Source of the DNA: a virus
Virus record (IMG/VR): IMGVR_UViG_3300046747_000672
Location: 1-64,000 of that record
DNA: 64,000 nucleotides
Strand: one strand, 5' to 3'
Of the stretch, positions 4,176 through 27,791 are shown in pieces. The position numbers and the translations under genes were made by a program. The stretch's first letter is position 1; every line of letters begins with the position of its first letter. The notes beneath the pieces are model-generated. The model did no database searches and was not told the DNA's origin. It saw only the letters and a program-made list of their open reading frames with translations.

Positions 4176-5716
4176 TGGCAACCAAGCTCCTTGTCCCGTC
4201 GCCCGCAACAAGCCGCGACGCGATGCTGCGGACCATCCGCTCCGGGCTGATTCAGCGCGGCGTCACGAACCCGAACGTGACGAAGGATTCTGACTGGTTC
4301 GTCGCCACGACGGCCTACGCCGACCAGCTTTCGCCGGTCTACGCGAACCAGCAAGTTCTTGCCGACGATCTCATGCCGGACACGGCAGAAGACGTCGGCC
4401 TCATTCGCTGGCTCGACATCTTCGATCTTGCCCCCCGCGCCGCCCAGCCGGCATCAGGCAACATCGTACTTGATACGTCGGCGGCGACCTTCGTCGCGAC
4501 CGGCCGGCAACTCCTGGACGGCCAGGGGCAGACCTACGAGGTCACGACCGGTGGCACCTATTCGAACGGCGCAACGATTCCGGTCCGTGGCGTCTCGACA
4601 GGGAAGGGGACCGACCACCCGCAAGGCTACCCGCTCCAGTGGGTCGGCACCGTGCCGAGCTTCGCGAATCAGCGACAGCTCGTCGGTCTCGGCGGCCTCA
4701 CCGGCGGCGCCGACATCGACACGTCCGAGACGAGCCGCAACCGTCTCTTCGACTACATGCGGAACCCTCCGCAGGGCGCGAACTGGACGCAGATCGCAAC
4801 CTGGGCGGTCGAAGCGAGCGCGAGCGTCCAGGCGGCCTACGTCTACCGCGCCCTCAACGGCCCGGCGACGGTTGGCCTCTGCGTGCTCGGGGGGCTCTCG
4901 TACGACACATCGAACGGCTGGACCCGCGCGGTCCCTGACGCCGTCGTTGCCACGGTGGCCAGCTACGTCGCGGCGCGTATGGACCGAACGAACCTGGTCA
5001 CGACGACGCCGAAGGACACAGGGGGCGCTACGCCGGACGTGGACGCGTCGATCTCCATTGGCGTGTCGCTGCCGCTCTCGGTCGCGGGCGGCGGTCCTGG
5101 TGGCGGCTGGATTGACGCCGACCCATGGCCGGACCTCTCCACGGCTGCGACCCGCGTTTACGTGTCCTCGGTGACGTCCTCGACCGTCTTCACTCTGACC
5201 AGCGACGACCCTGGAAACTGCCCGACGTCCACGAAGCTCATCGCGGGCGAGACGCAGATCGCCTGGTTCTCGTCGACGCAGTTCGCCGATGGGCAGGACC
5301 CGATCGTAACCGCCACGGTGACCGCGGTGTCGGGCTCGACCGGCGCCATCCAGGTGACCGTGAGCGTCCCGTTCTCCGGCATCGCGTCGGGCGACTACGT
5401 GATGCCGAACTCGGTCAACGTTCAGACCTATGCCGCCGCGCTGCTCGCGTCGATGGGCGACATGGGCGCCGGGCAATGGACGAGCCATGCGCCGACGCTC
5501 ATTTTCGCTGCGCGCCGCCCGCTCGTGACCGCGTCGAATCCGTCGGACATCGGCCCGACGCTGCTGCGCGCGATCTCCGACGCGGGCGAAGAAGTGACCG
5601 ACGTCGCCTACCTCTACCGGAGCGCAACGAACCCTGGCGTTCCGGCCAACACCACGACGGCGTCGCCGTTCGTGTTCGTGCCGAAAACGTTCGCCCTCAT
5701 GAACAAGATCCCCTGA
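4175..5716 (+). CDS. Baseplate J/gp47-like protein
   Basis: LMPDTAE...L.RW, A.G.G, LTGGADIDT.E..R.RL...RNPPQGAN, GPATV motifs. Confidence 0.9.
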   Translation: MATKLLVPSPATSRDAMLRTIRSGLIQRGVTNPNVTKDSDWFVATTAYADQLSPVYANQQVLADDLMPDTAEDVGLIRWLDIFDLAPRAAQPASGNIVLDTSAATFVATGRQLLDGQGQTYEVTTGGTYSNGATIPVRGVSTGKGTDHPQGYPLQWVGTVPSFANQRQLVGLGGLTGGADIDTSETSRNRLFDYMRNPPQGANWTQIATWAVEASASVQAAYVYRALNGPATVGLCVLGGLSYDTSNGWTRAVPDAVVATVASYVAARMDRTNLVTTTPKDTGGATPDVDASISIGVSLPLSVAGGGPGGGWIDADPWPDLSTAATRVYVSSVTSSTVFTLTSDDPGNCPTSTKLIAGETQIAWFSSTQFADGQDPIVTATVTAVSGSTGAIQVTVSVPFSGIASGDYVMPNSVNVQTYAAALLASMGDMGAGQWTSHAPTLIFAARRPLVTASNPSDIGPTLLRAISDAGEEVTDVAYLYRSATNPGVPANTTTASPFVFVPKTFALMNKIP

Positions 5717-6883: not shown

Positions 6884-7834
6884 ATGACGATTCAGAAGAT
6901 GCGCGTCTCGCCGTACGGCGTGAACGATGAGCTCTTGTCCGTGGAGGTCAACCTCCTGAACGACCAGATGCCGGCGTTCGTCGATGGCGAGGATGGCGGT
7001 CTCTACGAGCCGACGACGCCCATCGCCATCGGCGGCAACGGCCTCACGTGCACAACGTTCTTCAGTACGTCAGCCGCGTGCAGCACGTTGCTCGACGGCA
7101 CAGTCGTGTTTCCGAACGGGTTCTCGTGCACGGGCACGTCGACAACGACGTTCGGCGACAACTCGGTCAGTATCGGTAGCGGTGGCGAGCTTACGGCGTA
7201 CTGCGACTCGTTTTTCAATGGCGATGTCACGTGCACGGCGGCGTCGAACGTCGCGCTCTCTGCCGGCGCTGGCGTGTTCACTTGCGGCAAGACCGCATCG
7301 TTCGGATCGACGGTGGCAATCAGCGGCGCCGTCACGTGCGGGTCGACGCTTGCTGTGGCCGGCGTCGCGACGTTCGCGGCGAAACCAGTGTTCTCGGATG
7401 GCCTAACGGTTGGCGCTGGCACTCACACCGTCGATTTCAACAATTCTACGACGAACATCGGCGGCACGCTGAATCTGTCCGCGATTGTGCGGCTCATCAG
7501 TTCGGCCCGTATCCAATACAGATATGTTGCCGGCGTCAACGCGAATCACACCTACACGATCGCAGACTGCGACATGATCGTGGTTCCGCCGAGCGGCTCG
7601 ACGACGACGCGCATCTACACCATCAGCAACACCGGGTGCTCCGGCGGCGAAGTGATCGAGATCTTCAACGGCAACTTTCCGACGCAGAGATTCTCGATCG
7701 TGCAGCATGACGGTGGCACCGCGATCGCCGACCTTGACGGCACGCTCGACTTCATTGGCGTCAAAATCGTGAATGACGGCAGCGGCAACGCAACAAGCGC
7801 GTGGAAGGTCGTTAGTGCGACGTCGGCGCCGTGA
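6884..7834 (+). CDS. Tail fibre-like beta-rich protein
   Basis: Gly/Ser/Thr-rich beta repeats; follows the gp48-like gene. Confidence 0.6.
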   Translation: MTIQKMRVSPYGVNDELLSVEVNLLNDQMPAFVDGEDGGLYEPTTPIAIGGNGLTCTTFFSTSAACSTLLDGTVVFPNGFSCTGTSTTTFGDNSVSIGSGGELTAYCDSFFNGDVTCTAASNVALSAGAGVFTCGKTASFGSTVAISGAVTCGSTLAVAGVATFAAKPVFSDGLTVGAGTHTVDFNNSTTNIGGTLNLSAIVRLISSARIQYRYVAGVNANHTYTIADCDMIVVPPSGSTTTRIYTISNTGCSGGEVIEIFNGNFPTQRFSIVQHDGGTAIADLDGTLDFIGVKIVNDGSGNATSAWKVVSATSAP

Positions 7835-22659: not shown

Positions 22660-22679
22660 GGTGCTGTCCTAATTTGCCC
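22660..22679 (+). repeat. Left terminal inverted repeat
   Basis: GGTGCTGTCCTAATTTGCCC. Confidence 0.93.
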
Positions 22680-22745
22680 AGCCTCGTGGCGGTCGGCCCC
22701 CGCTGCCCGTGACGTCGCGACGGAGCGTGGCTAGGCTTCGGTGCA

Positions 22746-23075
22746 ATGGTGCCGACCAAGATGAGCGGGACGACCCGATGGATCGAGTTCAACCCTGAAG
22801 CCTCCAAGGCCTTCGACGTTGTCGACGCCATCGTCTCAGACGAGCGGATCGCGTTCGATGCGAAGGACGGGCAGTACCAGTACGTCGTGAAGCTGGCGCC
22901 TGCTCCTGGGGAGCCCGTTCGGTGGACTGGCGACTGGGTCGGCAAACTACCCACCGACGGCGGCGGCCTGGTCGATGTCCGCCGCTACGACTCGAAGGAA
23001 GGCGGCGTGGCGCTGGTCGGCGTTTGGAAGGATGGCGAGAACGTGGTGGACTGGATCACGGAGCTCCGGCCGTAG
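22746..23075 (+). CDS. Hypothetical cargo protein
   Basis: TAGGCT -10 box 8 nt before ATG; protein-like composition. Confidence 0.6.
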   Translation: MVPTKMSGTTRWIEFNPEASKAFDVVDAIVSDERIAFDAKDGQYQYVVKLAPAPGEPVRWTGDWVGKLPTDGGGLVDVRRYDSKEGGVALVGVWKDGENVVDWITELRP

Positions 23076-23399
23076 ATGGGCAAGCACGACAACGTGCAGG
23101 ACGACGTCTCGGTCGAAGAGCTCCAGCGCGCGGTGGAACACTTGCACGGCTGCACCGCGACGTTCGTCGAAGCCGTCGAGGTCCGCGAGGAGCACGGCGG
23201 TAAGGTCATCTGGGAGGGCGCGGTGAAGATCTTCGACCTCGTCGGCCACCCGAAAGCGAAGCGCGCATATGCTTGGTCGTACGCGACGACAGGCACCAAG
23301 CGACGCTTCGTCGCGGTGCTCGGGTTGCCGCCCGTGGACTCGGCCGTGATGGCCGTCAGGGCGACGATCTTGGCGGACGAGAAGGCAAGTCGAGGCTGA
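23076..23399 (+). CDS. Conserved hypothetical cargo protein
   Basis: WEG.V..FDL.GHPKAKRAYAW...VL..PPV.S motif; abuts the previous stop. Confidence 0.7.
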   Translation: MGKHDNVQDDVSVEELQRAVEHLHGCTATFVEAVEVREEHGGKVIWEGAVKIFDLVGHPKAKRAYAWSYATTGTKRRFVAVLGLPPVDSAVMAVRATILADEKASRG

Positions 23400-23450
23400 T
23401 CGCGCGATTTAGTCCTAGAACTAAACGGCATTTCGCTTCATGCTGGACAG

Positions 23451-23539
23451 CGGAAGGTGGTGGAATCGAACCACCGGGCGCGCGAACGCCCGCCAGGGCA
23501 TGTAGAGGACCCAGTTTTTCGCCGTTTCGGGCACCTTCC
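23451..23539 (-). ncRNA. tRNA-like RNA B (8/4 or 7/5 fold, long variable arm, CUA at the anticodon position)
   Basis: Acceptor GGAAGGT(G)/(C)ACCTTCC+G; T arm (G)GTGG-TTCGATT-CCAC(C); V arm GGGCG/CGCCC; irregular D arm; imperfect anticodon stem; no encoded CCA. Confidence 0.7.
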
Positions 23540-23642
23540 TGGTCGGCACGGTACGAGTCGAACGTCGCAGGTGGCAGCCTGCGTCCCCTTCGGATGCGTG
23601 TCGTGCATCCCGCCAACCGAGGCAGGCAGGGGAACCGTGCCA
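23540..23642 (-). ncRNA. tRNA-like RNA A (9/3 fold, encoded ACCA, extra helix)
   Basis: 9-bp acceptor TGGCACGGT/ACCGTGCCG+ACCA; T arm ACG-TTCGACT-CGT; arms GGATGC/GCATCC (7-nt loop) and GCAGG/CCTGC; extra TCCCCT/AGGGGA helix. Confidence 0.7.
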
Positions 23643-23648
23643 GAATCG

Positions 23649-24452
23649 CTAGTTCTTCACCTCCTCGGCGTCATCGATCTGGGTCTCCAAGAAGGCGTTC
23701 ATGCGCTTCACGTCGGCCGCGGTGAAGTCGGGCGGGAGTGGAATGTCGATCACGCGTCCCCGCGATAGCTTGCACTTGTAGACAATGAAGTCCGCCGGAA
23801 CGTGAAGCGTCTGCGTCCCGGCTGGCGCGGCGGGCGATTTCGGCGTGTCCGCACTATTCTCCTTCGCGACCGCGGGCGCGGCATCGAGACTGATCTGCCC
23901 CGATGGCGTCAGCAGCTCTGCCGTCTTCAGCGAATCAAGGAATGCGTCTGCGGCCATCAGGGCCATCGACTCCACAATACCGTGGTCGGTGTAGAGAAGG
24001 TTCCTGAGCCCCTCCCTCGTCGGAGCAGGGTGTCCACTGAATTGTTCGAGGAGCTTCGTGTACAACTCGGTGGTCCGCATCGCGGCGATCTTCGCGGCGC
24101 GCCCAGCCTCCGGCGTCAGAGGGTTCGTGACACGAAGGGCGAGGTCCGTCACCTTGAGGCGTCCGCTTTCGCCGCGCCCGACGCGTTCGATCAGGCCGTA
24201 CAGCATCGCGCTCGGCACCCCGTACGCCCACCGACGGTCCGTGTTCTTCGCGATCCCCAGCTCCCTCATTATCGCGTCGCTCGATGCCTCCTTGCCTCCG
24301 ACGCGCCGAACGGCCTGCACCATCTCGATCGCCTGCCCGATGCCGTAGTACGGGTACTTCGTTTCGCTTCGAGCTTTGCCATCTCCCGAAGCCACGTTTT
24401 CTGGTCGCTGCGAATCCGACCCGTTTCCCCCCGCTGCATTCTGGTCGACCAT
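23649..24452 (-). CDS. Uncharacterised 267-aa protein, probably winged-helix nucleic-acid binding
   Basis: YPYY...AIE...GG...I..ELG...AMLYGLIER...VTDLA pattern; GAGG RBS; stop 6 nt upstream of the tRNA-like pair. Confidence 0.75.
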   Translation of the reverse strand: MVDQNAAGGNGSDSQRPENVASGDGKARSETKYPYYGIGQAIEMVQAVRRVGGKEASSDAIMRELGIAKNTDRRWAYGVPSAMLYGLIERVGRGESGRLKVTDLALRVTNPLTPEAGRAAKIAAMRTTELYTKLLEQFSGHPAPTREGLRNLLYTDHGIVESMALMAADAFLDSLKTAELLTPSGQISLDAAPAVAKENSADTPKSPAAPAGTQTLHVPADFIVYKCKLSRGRVIDIPLPPDFTAADVKRMNAFLETQIDDAEEVKN

Positions 24453-24623
24453 GACGTTGAACCTCGTGTCCAGAATCTATCCGAACCTAACCGGCGACGT
24501 CAGTAGATTTGATATTTTCGTTAGGCGTGGCGTTAGATTGTCAGCCGAACCGGTCAGAATAAAATAAGTTTTGATCTGATAAACTGCCGTACTAATTCAT
24601 ATTTTTGTTCTAGACTCCGGTGC

Positions 24624-24851
24624 ATGTCGTCGAGGTCAATCGCCAGAGTCGTTGGGCTGTCTGAGTTGATGGAGTCATTCGACGGGATGGCAAGAAGCGT
24701 GTTCGGGATGTCTGGATCCGAATTCGAGATGGCTTATTACGCTGGAATCATTGCTGATTCTGGTGAATTACGGGACCTCGCCTCTGTGCTATCGCTCATC
24801 GAGCGACTCCGTGAGCGAGATAAGATCGTCAGGATTGGACGACCTCTTTGA
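24624..24851 (+). CDS. Small hypothetical protein (low GC)
   Basis: TAGACT -10 box 7 nt before ATG; divergent from the 267-aa gene. Confidence 0.5.
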   Translation: MSSRSIARVVGLSELMESFDGMARSVFGMSGSEFEMAYYAGIIADSGELRDLASVLSLIERLRERDKIVRIGRPL

Positions 24852-24866
24852 TTCCGACAGACTCAC

Positions 24867-25067
24867 CTATGAATCGGTCGCTGCCGCGACAACCTTTCGG
24901 ATCCAGTCCGAAAGAGCGAGCCCAGACTTCTCGGCCGCCGTCTCGGCCGCGTCCCGCTCCGCCTGCGTCCACCGCAACGTGAGCGCCGCCGCCTTTCGCT
25001 CCTCTGGCGCCTTGGGCGGCCTCCCCATCCTCTTCTTCGGTGTCTTGCTCGCTTTGCGTTGGCTCAC
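24867..25067 (-). CDS. Ribbon-helix-helix-type DNA-binding protein
   Basis: GRPPK...LTLRWTQAERDAAETAAEKSGLALSDWIR; GTG overlaps the transposase TGA. Confidence 0.75.
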   Translation of the reverse strand: MSQRKASKTPKKRMGRPPKAPEERKAAALTLRWTQAERDAAETAAEKSGLALSDWIRKVVAAATDS

Positions 25068-25906
25068 GATCGCCCCACATTCATGGCCGCGTCGAGCAGG
25101 TCGTCTATCGACCACAGCGTCGCTGTGATACCTGCGGCCATCGCTGGCGTCGTGCGAAGCGTCGTGTGCCGTCGCACGAAGTTATAGAAACCGAAGTGAA
25201 GCGCGGTCGCCGCAACGTGGTTCTCGAACTTCTTCGAGTGCGCGTTGGTGAGGCGTGTGTACCGGCGAACGCCCATGCGCACCGTGAGGTTCTGGCGCTC
25301 GACGTAGGACGTCGAAACGAGCTCGGCGACGGGCTCGCCAAAGATCGGCGTCTTCTCCGTGCCCGTGACCTTGGGCGGCGAGTACCTACCAGGACCGGTG
25401 GCTTCGGCCTCGTACGATTTTACGAGCGTCGCGTAGTCGACGCCTTTATCTGCGAAGGCACCGCGGATCGCCTCGACGTACGTGCGGAGTCCGTCCGTCG
25501 TGACCTGCACGCGGTAGCGAAGACGCGAGGCGAGGTCCGCCACGAACGCATCGGTATGCGCTGCGTCGCGTTTCCCAACGAGGAACGATGGGACGAGCTT
25601 CGTTTCCGCGTCGAGCGCGACGAAGGTCCACGTGTCGCCGATGCGGGAGGAATCATCTTCCGGAAGGACGTGACGTTGCTTCTTGCCGACGAACGCCCAG
25701 AGCTCGTCCAGCTCCAGCCGCTCGCAAGCAAGGTCGCGCATCGTCGCGTTGAGCAGGTCAGCGCAGCCGTTCCCGACACGGACCATGAGGCGAAGGATCG
25801 TGTCCCGATGCACGCTAGTCATCCGCTCGATCGAGCGGGCGGAGTTCCCCTCCACGAGGGCCGAGAGGATCGCGATCTGCTTCTCACGGGGAAGAACGTT
25901 GCTCAT
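25064..25906 (-). CDS. IS1-family DDE transposase (single ORF)
   Basis: N-term HTH LVEGNSARSIER; ELDELW (D), TTDG (D), TSYVERQNLT.RM..RR.TRLTN..SKK (E); TPAMAAG. Confidence 0.92.
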   Translation of the reverse strand: MSNVLPREKQIAILSALVEGNSARSIERMTSVHRDTILRLMVRVGNGCADLLNATMRDLACERLELDELWAFVGKKQRHVLPEDDSSRIGDTWTFVALDAETKLVPSFLVGKRDAAHTDAFVADLASRLRYRVQVTTDGLRTYVEAIRGAFADKGVDYATLVKSYEAEATGPGRYSPPKVTGTEKTPIFGEPVAELVSTSYVERQNLTVRMGVRRYTRLTNAHSKKFENHVAATALHFGFYNFVRRHTTLRTTPAMAAGITATLWSIDDLLDAAMNVGRS

Positions 25907-25913
25907 GATACTT

Positions 25914-25941
25914 ATTGTATCGCATAAATGCCACGTGGCAA
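25914..25941 (-). promoter_or_regulatory. Transposase sigma70-type promoter with palindromic operator
   Basis: TTGCCA-N16-TACAAT-N7-ATG; perfect palindrome TGCCACGTGGCA (25929-25940) over the -35 box. Confidence 0.7.
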
Positions 25942-25979
25942 GAACCCCTTTTTGCGACGCAATAAATTGGCCGCCCGGT

Positions 25980-26465
25980 CTATGCCATCGGATGCGATTC
26001 CCAGTGCGCTTGCCGCGAGCGCATGCCGACGCGAAACGGCTTTGGCGACGAAGCAATCTCGTGGAGAGTTTCGGCCGGATAATGCGTGGCCGGTTTCTCG
26101 TTGGCGACCAGTAGGCGCAGCATGCGATCACATGTCACGCCAATCTCGTCGTGATCGTTTTCCCAGCGCGAAAGCGTGGCCGGGTCGATGCCCATGCGCT
26201 GAGCAAGATCTCGCCCACTCAGCCCAATAGACTTCCGCAAGAATTTGATCTCGTCCCCCGTGAATCTAGTGGGCTTCTGAATCAGAGCCATCGCGATAGA
26301 CTTGTGGAGCCCTTCAATGTTTGAGATCGCGACTTCAGTGGCGCCGCACTTTCCACAACGCCGGACGGGGACATCGCAGAGGGTCACGTAAGGGAGACCG
26401 CACTCCGCGTATTTGTAGTTCTCCGTCGTTTCCGTAAGCCTATTGCCACACTCGGTGCATTTCAT
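25980..26465 (-). CDS. MqsA/YgiT-type antitoxin (zinc finger + XRE HTH)
   Basis: MKCTECG...RCGKCG; EIKFLRKSIGLSGRDLAQRMGIDPATLSRWEN. Confidence 0.88.
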   Translation of the reverse strand: MKCTECGNRLTETTENYKYAECGLPYVTLCDVPVRRCGKCGATEVAISNIEGLHKSIAMALIQKPTRFTGDEIKFLRKSIGLSGRDLAQRMGIDPATLSRWENDHDEIGVTCDRMLRLLVANEKPATHYPAETLHEIASSPKPFRVGMRSRQAHWESHPMA

Positions 26466-26797
26466 CGATGCTTCCTCCATGCCGTGGCGATGTACAGTTC
26501 TGTTCGGCTTCGAAAGCCAACGATCACGCACATCCTTGGAGTTTCTATGTGGTGCCTCCAGCACCCATTCTCCCATTCGGCCTCACTGACAACGCCAGCG
26601 CGCAAAATGTTCGTCACGTCCACCATGGATAGATTGTCCTTCTCCATCTCCCTCAATGCGTGCCCCTTCGGGGGCACGACGAATCCTCCAGAAAGGATGG
26701 CAGTGATGACCTCCTTCGCCTCCCTTGCCTTAAGCGGTTCGAGCAGTTCTACGTCATCTCCGTCTTGATCTTTAGTCAACGCTTGTCCTCCGGTCAA
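26462..26797 (-). CDS. DUF4258-family toxin (RelE-like RNase); start uncertain
   Basis: HALREMEKDNLSMVDVTNILRAG...IATAW; stop overlaps the antitoxin ATG. Confidence 0.8.
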   Translation of the reverse strand: MTGGQALTKDQDGDDVELLEPLKAREAKEVITAILSGGFVVPPKGHALREMEKDNLSMVDVTNILRAGVVSEAEWENGCWRHHIETPRMCVIVGFRSRTELYIATAWRKHR

Positions 26798-26841
26798 GGC
26801 CTAGACCAACGGGTTCGTTTTCGGCAAATTGTCGAATCTAC

Positions 26842-26857
26842 TTGACCGTCAGGTCAA
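26842..26857. promoter_or_regulatory. Inverted repeat, likely TA operator
   Basis: TTGACC-GTCA-GGTCAA upstream of the toxin gene. Confidence 0.5.
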
Positions 26858-26904
26858 CTGCCTAGCTCGACTTCGCTGGGCATAAATACGCCGCAGCGCA
26901 TCGC

Positions 26905-27225
26905 TCACCGACTCCCGCAGAACGGGCACGGCTGCGGCCCGGGCCACCTGCCGGCTAGGATCTGTTCGACGGGCGCCCAAGCGATCCTCGCCACGCAGAG
27001 CGCCATGCCAGGGCTCACCCGATGCTTCGCTTCGGTCGAGTGTCGCAGCGTGCGCAGTCCGACCCCCATCAGTTCGGCCACCCGCTTGCGCCCGTAGCGA
27101 GCTCGCAGCTTGCGGATCGCGGCCTTCACGTTCACCTGCTCGGCTGCCGTGAGTTGCCACGACCGCTTCGGTGGCGCGCCAGGCGCACGCCGCGACCAAG
27201 CCTGCTTCTCCCGAAGGATCGTCAT
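26905..27225 (-). CDS. HTH protein with C-terminal CPFC
   Basis: RKRVAELMGVGLRTLR HTH-like segment. Confidence 0.6.
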   Translation of the reverse strand: MTILREKQAWSRRAPGAPPKRSWQLTAAEQVNVKAAIRKLRARYGRKRVAELMGVGLRTLRHSTEAKHRVSPGMALCVARIAWAPVEQILAGRWPGPQPCPFCGSR

Positions 27226-27437
27226 GCGTCCGCGCGCCTCGCGTCAACGCGCGGAATGGCAAAAGCGCACGACGGCGCGCACTCGGCTGTCCTCCGCCTG
27301 CACGCGAAGCGCTTCCAGCACGATGTAGAGCGCCGCCGCGTGGCAGTTGCCAGCGGACGCATGCAGGCGGCTCGCGTCGCAGAGCTCGGCGAGCATCCTG
27401 TAGAGCTCGATGCCGATGGCCGGTGGCCTCGGTCGCT

Positions 27438-27656
27438 TCACGAACGCCCCCTCCTGCCCAGCCTCGCCGCGGTGGCCAGCCAAACGGCGTCGACCGCCTC
27501 TGCGTGCGCCTTCCAGGCAGCTTCGATGGCGACCATCAGCAGACGGAACGCATGGCGCTCGGCGGCCTTCAGTGCCGCGAGTTCGGCCATGGCTTCGTCT
27601 GCGACGTCGCGCCGGTTGCGCCCCTTCGGGCGGACTCGTACCTTCCCGTCGTTCAT
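27438..27656 (-). CDS. Small helical hypothetical protein
   Basis: GGAGGT RBS 6 nt before ATG. Confidence 0.5.
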   Translation of the reverse strand: MNDGKVRVRPKGRNRRDVADEAMAELAALKAAERHAFRLLMVAIEAAWKAHAEAVDAVWLATAARLGRRGRS

Positions 27657-27771
27657 CGGACTTACCTCCGGTGGACTGGGCTCCGAGCGTCTCTAGCGCT
27701 CGGGGCCCGCTTGGTTTCTGCCGGAGGGGTAGCAGTCGGAGCGGAGCGACGGGTGGGGAAAGGTGGCGGAC

Positions 27772-27791
27772 GGGCAAATTAGGACAGCACC
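27772..27791 (-). repeat. Right terminal inverted repeat
   Basis: GGGCAAATTAGGACAGCACC is the reverse complement of the left TIR. Confidence 0.93.

Follow-up and report, generated by a model that had tools for sequence, protein, structure and literature searches.

The 103-nt RNA described here (RNA A) is a structural variant among the rare (9/3) allo-tRNAs, and both its host and its mobile-element setting are new for this kind of RNA. The RNA is encoded in the window, that is, positions 1 to 64,000 of an IMG/VR phage record of 113.8 kb and 65% G+C, the host of which is probably a member of the Myxococcota. In its predicted fold, an additional 6-bp helix (hereafter, helix X) encloses the D-like and anticodon-like arms and replaces the cloverleaf with two nested junctions. 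RNA A abuts a second irregular tRNA-like molecule (RNA B), and both RNAs, together with the gene for a protein denoted P0001, lie within an IS1-family cargo transposon.

Anatomy and predicted fold of RNA A

RNA A is read from the minus strand and numbered such that i = 23643 - window position (Table 1). The acceptor stem consists of 9 bp, with U.G as the first pair, and is continued directly by the 5' strand of helix X. The D-like hairpin combines the GCC/GGC stem with a U.U mismatch, two further pairs and a CUCG tetraloop, and this type of mismatch occurs once among the 35 base pairs of the entire RNA. A single nucleotide, G32, separates the D-like and anticodon-like hairpins, and the latter is joined to the 3' strand of helix X by a GA linker. 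The anticodon-like loop, ACGACAC, contains C33 and the nominal anticodon GAC, the T loop, UUCGACU, agrees with the T54-Y60 consensus, the discriminator is A73, and the 3:70 pair is G-C. The terminal ACCA abuts the first base of RNA B, with a spacer of 0 nt. Altogether, a 4-way junction of the acceptor, helix X, variable and T arms, in which all linkers are 0 nt, is nested over a 3-way junction formed by helix X, the D-like arm and the anticodon-like arm.

Table 1. Positions of the features discussed in the text (window coordinates unless a locus is named)
Feature	Position	Strand	Basis or remark
IS1-family cargo transposon, 5,132 bp	22660-27791		terminal repeats and target duplication
109-aa gene, no known family	22746-23075	+	stop/start-coupled to the 107-aa gene; convergent on RNA B
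107-aa gene, no known family	23076-23399	+	convergent on RNA B
RNA B, irregular 7/5 tRNA-like	23451-23539	-	starts at the base after the CCA of RNA A
RNA A, 103 nt, encoded A-CCA 3' end	23540-23642	-	sequence reading and RNAfold
RNA A, A-CCA (i100-103)	23540-23543	-	3' terminus
RNA A, acceptor 3' strand ACCGUGCCG (i91-99)	23544-23552	-	pairs with UGGCACGGU
RNA A, T arm ACG-UUCGACU-CGU (i78-90)	23553-23565	-	3-bp stem
RNA A, variable arm CGCAGG-CUGCCA-CCUGCG (i60-77)	23566-23583	-	long; 6-bp stem, 6-nt loop
RNA A, helix X 3' strand AGGGGA (i54-59)	23584-23589	-	directly 5' of the variable arm
RNA A, anticodon-like arm GGAUGC-ACGACAC-GCAUCC (i33-51)	23592-23610	-	6-bp stem, 7-nt loop
RNA A, D-like hairpin GCC-U-GC-CUCG-GU-U-GGC, GCCUGCCUCGGUUGGC (i16-31)	23612-23627	-	RNAfold; compared with the description in PMC5389517
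RNA A, helix X 5' strand UCCCCU (i10-15)	23628-23633	-	directly 3' of the 9-bp acceptor strand
RNA A, acceptor 5' strand UGGCACGGU (i1-9)	23634-23642	-	pairs with ACCGUGCCG
P0001, 267 aa, tandem winged-helix	23649-24452	-	structure model
DDE transposase	25064-26131	-	Pfam DDE_Tnp_IS1, NCBIfam transpos_IS1
Type-II ochre tRNA(UUA) at the RNA A position	L004:4901-4985, L006:2135-2219, L020:619-702		Rfam
Structured element at the RNA A position	L007 ~4830-4915, L016 ~1865-1950, L067 upstream of 1378	- (L067)	
RNA B family	L003:5078-5167, L004:4989-5080, L006:2223-2314, L007:4916-5007		family alignment
RNA B family, continued	L008:5141-5233, L016:1951-2048, L065:462-554, L066:921-1011, L067:1281-1378	- (L067)	family alignment

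The minimum free energy (MFE) structure and the centroid structure computed with RNAfold are both identical to the annotated structure, with a free energy of -50.9 kcal/mol and z = -3.4; equal stability was reached in 1 of 200 shuffled sequences, and RNA A folded in the same way within a 221-nt precursor context that included RNA B. The pair probabilities of helix X range from 0.85 to 0.996, and forbidding this helix costs about 7 kcal/mol; a competing fold that has a conventional D stem reaches -38.0 kcal/mol, compared to -50.9 kcal/mol for the predicted fold. For random 6-nt and 8-nt linkers of matching base composition, the chance of obtaining 6 contiguous Watson-Crick pairs is p = 0.0012, or 0.010 if G.U pairs are allowed. 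Pair probabilities in the acceptor stem are between 0.58 and 1.0 and those in the T stem between 0.87 and 0.92, and G77 and A91 cannot lengthen the T stem. The plus strand of this region gives a less significant fold (z = -1.8) and contains no T-loop motif.

The initial annotation of this locus had proposed that TCCCCT and AGGGGA form a 6-bp helix around the D-like and anticodon-like hairpins, giving nested three-way and four-way junctions instead of a cloverleaf, and that the 7-nt loop lacks U33. The helix is part of the MFE structure as well as the centroid, the predicted fold agrees with the nested junctions, and the second base of the loop is indeed C. The accompanying idea that RNA A could still be a substrate of end-processing enzymes fits the 12-bp acceptor/T stack, the consensus T loop and the ACCA end abutting RNA B. 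The suggestion that an elongated RNA of this kind would not fit the ribosomal A site is purely deductive and not secure. By stacking on the anticodon stem, which likewise has 6 bp, helix X could fill the place that a 6-bp D stem occupies in tRNASec and allo-tRNAs, and the resulting 12-layer limb would be of normal length. Overall, we consider the chances about even that RNA A is a genuine tRNA derivative that undergoes processing and that contains helix X in vivo.

Affinity to (9/3) allo-tRNAs and other tRNA-like RNAs

RNA A was called neither by ARAGORN nor by any Rfam model at the gathering thresholds, and the models of the Rfam tRNA clan (CL00001) yielded no match even at E-values up to 10. 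The assignment of RNA A to canonical tRNAs (RF00005, ARAGORN) was rejected, there being no match above threshold. As a positive control, the tRNA(UUA) encoded at the neighboring position in related loci (L004, L006 and L020) scored 54-62 bits with Rfam. When the strands of helix X were deleted in silico, the resulting 91-nt RNA was recognized end to end as tRNA-Val(gac) by ARAGORN at the 80% threshold, which is weak evidence because this threshold is noisy; we discarded the low-threshold output for the record, which amounted to 269 calls in 114 kb. The sole regular ARAGORN call in the record, a 98-nt "tRNA-Gln(ctg)" at 7224-7321 (+), is located inside a 316-aa structural-module ORF and is probably a false positive.

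The closest counterparts of RNA A, compared by published description, are the (9/3) allo-tRNAs, which are described in Mukai 2017 (NAR, PMC5389517) and of which about ten natural species were known in 2020 (Mukai 2020, PMC7590224). The 9-bp acceptor stem and 3-bp T stem of RNA A add up to the characteristic 12-bp acceptor branch. The published description also fits the D stem, which is long and capped by a tetraloop, as well as the 6-bp anticodon stem and the long variable arm. Further shared features include the soil origin, the link to transposable elements and to genes of the toxin-antitoxin type, and an anticodon unrelated to the apparent identity. The tRNA-like shape with an extra helix had been recognized in the initial annotation, which missed the match to (9/3) allo-tRNAs in everything but helix X. 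It is this helix, with its strands placed between the acceptor and the D arm and between the anticodon and variable arms, that sets RNA A apart: in the MFE and centroid structures alike, it separates the D-like and anticodon-like arms from the acceptor, variable and T arms, so that the core is not the single, cloverleaf-type multi-way junction of allo-tRNAs. RNA A also differs from allo-tRNAs in having C33 rather than U33, and A73 and a G3-C70 pair rather than the G73/U73 of the serine identity or the G3:U70 of the alanine identity, and in its location in a transposon within a Myxococcota phage, as opposed to Acidobacteria.

A second point of comparison is provided by the polycistrons of irregular tRNAs (tRNA0/1/2; Fig. 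4 of Mukai 2017), which comprise tandem, abutting, non-canonical tRNAs with nonsense or missense suppressor anticodons, encoded beside mobile-element or toxin-antitoxin genes. These polycistrons come from forest and peat soil metatranscriptomes, and some of their members are charged without being used in translation. More generally, allo-tRNAs and irregular tRNA polycistrons from soil metatranscriptomes are linked there to transposons and toxin-antitoxin genes (PMC5389517). Unlike the RNAs studied here, the polycistronic tRNAs are predicted to be of the 8/4 or 7/5 type and are assigned to Acidobacteria. Some of them contain an "extra loop" (E-loop), which might correspond to helix X.

Other classes of tRNA-like RNAs resemble RNA A in part. 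Bacterial tRNASec (RF01852) has a similarly extended acceptor stem, a 6-bp anticodon stem and a long variable arm, as well as a 6-bp D stem with a 4-nt loop; however, its 8/5 branch consists of 13 bp, the anticodon is UCA and there is no helix X. We rejected this assignment given the 12-bp branch and GAC triplet of RNA A and the lack of a match to RF01852 at E-values up to 10. YrlA and other bacterial Y RNAs are likewise non-decoding mimics of the acceptor, T and D regions that are processed by tRNA enzymes, but the anticodon arm of YrlA is replaced by a Ro-binding stem. This assignment was dismissed because the 113.8-kb record contains no gene for Rsr (TROVE, PF05731), for which the control genomes give matches; there was no Rfam hit to this class either. 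Finally, RNA A scored 20.7 bits (E = 0.012) against BTH_s1 (RF02690), for which the gathering score is 74. The 15-bp hairpin of this model contains many non-pairs in RNA A, and because the helices of the model are not preserved, we regard this similarity as due to chance.

The transposon module and the variable RNA preceding RNA B

The transposon is bounded by perfect 20-bp inverted repeats (22660-79 and 27772-91) and flanked by an 8-bp target duplication, CGATTTTT (22652-59 and 27792-99). Within this element, the TAG stop codon of P0001 is positioned 6 nt before the start of RNA A. The structural model of P0001 (pLDDT 81) resembles the recognition domains D1-D2 of FokI, BrxA and SspB, with middling Z scores of 6-7.7, which marks P0001 as a nucleic-acid binder, and nothing more specific. 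P0001 matched no Pfam, PHROG, NCBIfam or PADLOC family. It has 45 homologs, with 50-68% identity, and a search of viral contigs for its relatives found none.

An ORF with a CxxC and an HTH motif (25980-26576, minus strand) scores against the MqsA family (TIGR03830, 75 bits). It overlaps the DDE transposase ORF (25064-26131, minus strand) by about 150 nt in another frame, which could point to frameshifting of the InsA/InsB kind and not to an antitoxin. Upstream of it, another ORF (26462-26797) shows a weak match to DUF4258.

RNA B combines a UUCGAUU T loop with a long variable arm and a CUCUACA loop that contains the anticodon CUA; its match to the Rfam tRNA-Sec model is weak (26 bits, with a threshold of 47). 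An alignment of the RNA B family (n=10, including three members from other viral contigs) revealed a covarying acceptor stem, GGAAGG.../...CCUUCC-G, an invariant C-U-Y-U-A-C-A loop, with the anticodon UUA or CUA and the unusual C37, and a long variable arm, with all members scoring below the Rfam tRNA threshold. In Myxococcota metagenome-assembled genomes (MAGs) and in soil phages, the family members are placed close to one terminus of IS1-like elements. When the sequences were read by eye, no correlation was seen between the stop codons of P0001 homologs and the anticodons of RNA B. Neighbor clustering showed that the 107-aa gene is kept immediately after RNA B in L003, L007, L008, L011 and L065; the loci in which it adjoins RNA B include one without P0001. 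The interval that separates RNA B from this convergent gene contains an A+T-rich inverted repeat, TTTAGT-CCTAGA-ACTAAA (23409-23426), which may be a bidirectional terminator; a simple terminator scan did not flag this site.

P0001 relatives are encoded in 8 Myxococcota MAG loci and 13 metagenome contigs, and the RNA in the position of RNA A changes among these loci. A type-II tRNA(UUA) is found downstream of the P0001 relative in L004, L006, L013, L020, L022 and L023; this is a bona fide type-II tRNA (54-62 bits with Rfam), called by ARAGORN as "tRNA-Stop(tta)" in L004 and L006. In four of these six loci (L004, L006, L022 and L023), the tRNA is followed by a B-type RNA, after a gap of 3-4 nt in L004 and L006. 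L007, L016 and L067 contain a different conserved structured element in this position, again followed by a B-type RNA, and the same element is present in L009 and L015, where no RNA B was seen. The motif of this element reads GCGCCCG..CCGAGGCGC..CUAAAUAUCGG..GGGCGCCCC and continues into a long covarying hairpin. In L003 and L008, the position is occupied by a small Cys/Arg-rich ORF that precedes the B-type RNA. Because these loci repeatedly contain an IS1-like transposase, inverted repeats of related sequence, and the 107-aa gene as well as one of 106 aa, the entire family can be described as IS1-type cargo transposons with irregular, suppressor-like tRNAs, a setting that matches the one reported for allo-tRNAs and irregular polycistrons in Mukai 2017 (PMC5389517). 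In L067 (160-2353), a B-type RNA lies together with a homolog of the 106-aa gene between two IS1-like inverted repeats (GGTGGTGTCCTAATTTG...) that are about 2.2 kb apart; this interval has no transposase, which suggests a non-autonomous cargo element.

Full-length homologs of RNA A were found neither among the more than 550 genomes nor in the viral, plasmid and phage collections searched, a result that refers to these collections and does not imply absence elsewhere; consequently, helix X is without covariation support. Exact and degenerate RNA A patterns matched the viral contigs once, inside a coding sequence (L069), whereas the blastn searches of phages and plasmids were empty or gave chance matches. 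In BLAST searches with RNAs A and B against 5 MAGs and 401 Myxococcota genomes, the best matches were coding regions or ordinary T arms. A single-sequence covariance model of RNA A (R1) identified no homolog in any of the loci, in G000-G004 or in the 151 genomes of the order to which G001 belongs. A search of viral contigs for the terminal inverted repeat of the transposon was likewise empty or gave chance matches, and exact look-up of the spurious ORFs overlapping RNAs A and B in the protein collection returned nothing.

A partial variant of RNA A came from a soil metatranscriptome (run X10), in which a 341-nt contig is identical to the window over 119 nt (23450-23568), a span that covers all of RNA B and the last 29 nt of RNA A; runs X3-X5 gave nothing beyond identical pieces or unrelated short matches. 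Just upstream of this span, the contig is about 70% identical over the 30 letters read, which in the RNA sense are CGCAGCCGAAGAGGACGCGGACUCCACUCC, compared to CGCAUCCGAAGGGGACGCAGGCUGCCACCU in the window. The variable stem of the variant, CGCGGA/UCCGCG with the loop CUCCAC, differs from the CGCAGG/CCUGCG stem of the window by two double compensatory changes, which points to structural selection on RNA A and argues against a decaying pseudogene. The stretch read covers the 3' strands of the two preceding helices: that of helix X is AGAGGA instead of AGGGGA (G56 to A), and that of the anticodon stem is GCAGCC instead of GCAUCC. If C13 is unchanged, helix X of the variant would carry a C.A mismatch. 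The identity runs from inside the variable arm of RNA A to one base past RNA B, with both flanks diverging, a pattern suggesting that RNA cassettes are exchanged between elements in mosaic fashion. That the contig stems from an RNA library hints at transcription but does not prove it, given that this is a single contig without visible ends and the library may contain DNA.

Alternative readings and the proposed role of RNA A

RNA A might be a working missense-suppressor allo-tRNA that reads GUC/GUU with its GAC anticodon and is charged by virtue of A73 and the long variable arm, helix X being either tolerated by the ribosome or not formed in vivo, where a CCC(U)GCC/GGCGGG D stem would take its place. 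In Mukai 2017 (PMC5389517), natural 9/3 allo-tRNAs with non-cognate anticodons are reported to decode efficiently in E. coli; without the strands of helix X, the rest of RNA A makes up a complete 9/3 tRNA, the tRNA-Val(gac) of the lowered-threshold ARAGORN search; and helix X could serve as a 6-bp substitute for the D stem by stacking on the anticodon stem. Nevertheless, C33 replaces the near-universal U33, the fold with the alternative D stem is far less stable than the predicted one (-38.0 vs -50.9 kcal/mol), the pair probability of helix X exceeds 0.85, and the same source describes allo-tRNAs with aberrant junctions as inactive in translation and, in some cases, toxic. We therefore consider a decoding role of this kind unlikely. 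The same base pairs can also be assigned a different homology, whereby helix X is the 6-bp D stem, the "variable arm" is the true anticodon arm, and the enclosed hairpins are an expansion of the D loop. The order of elements (acceptor, 5' strand of helix X, insert, 3' strand of helix X, next stem) corresponds to a D arm and a subsequent anticodon arm, each of the four junction linkers measures 0 nt, the two 6-bp stems would produce the 12-bp D and anticodon stack of allo-tRNAs, and the outer loop starts with CU both in the window (CUGCCA) and in the X10 variant (CUCCAC). However, this loop consists of 6 nt, not 7, the variable region would be missing altogether, and the enclosed hairpins are too similar to the D and anticodon arms of allo-tRNAs for a random insert, making this reassignment improbable.

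The reading of RNA A as a decaying, functionless pseudogene of a tRNA or allo-tRNA on a transposon, in which helix X is fortuitous, appears to us similarly doubtful. Allo-tRNA pseudogenes overlapping transposon genes are on record (Mukai 2017, PMC5389517), the searches of over 550 genomes and of viral, plasmid and phage collections returned no homologs, and both C33 and A73 are atypical. Such decay is hard to reconcile with six intact helices that contain one U.U mismatch in 35 pairs, with the X10 variant, in which two compensatory pairs of the variable arm are joined to 119 identical nucleotides, with the exact junction between A-CCA and RNA B, or with the 0.1-1% probability that helix X arose by chance.

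Given C33, A73 and the rearranged core, RNA A is most likely a non-decoding tRNA mimic. During its evolution, the linker at 8-9 and the first part of the variable region might each have expanded to a 6-nt strand and paired as helix X, which would then be a lineage-specific addition that splits the tRNA core into the 4-way and 3-way junctions. RNA A would be co-transcribed with P0001 and the suppressor-like RNA B from the cargo transposon, and RNase P would cut at the 5' ends of both RNAs. Because ACCA abuts RNA B without a spacer, a single RNase P cut at RNA B would leave the mature A-CCA end of RNA A. The non-decoding mimic could then act in conflicts among mobile elements as a decoy, a ligand, or a toxic or antitoxic partner of tRNA-directed enzymes; alternatively, it might plausibly be a partner or ligand of P0001.

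More broadly, P0001, RNA A and RNA B might constitute a new mobile-element system that works by tRNA mimicry, in which helix X makes RNA A a non-decoding but still processed mimic and IS1-family transposons spread the module among Myxococcota and their phages. This is a tentative proposal to which we assign a fairly low probability. Under tRNA mimicry, RNA A would perhaps be charged, and could perhaps function as a toxin, an antitoxin, an anti-defense decoy or a P0001 ligand. The module is compact and bounded, comprising one protein and two abutting RNAs in an intact transposon within a phage. If helix X is real, the core of a tRNA has been extensively rebuilt here while the acceptor/T minihelix was kept, and such a nested-junction tRNA scaffold would be relevant to tRNA mimicry between phages and hosts as well as to the engineering of orthogonal tRNA chassis.
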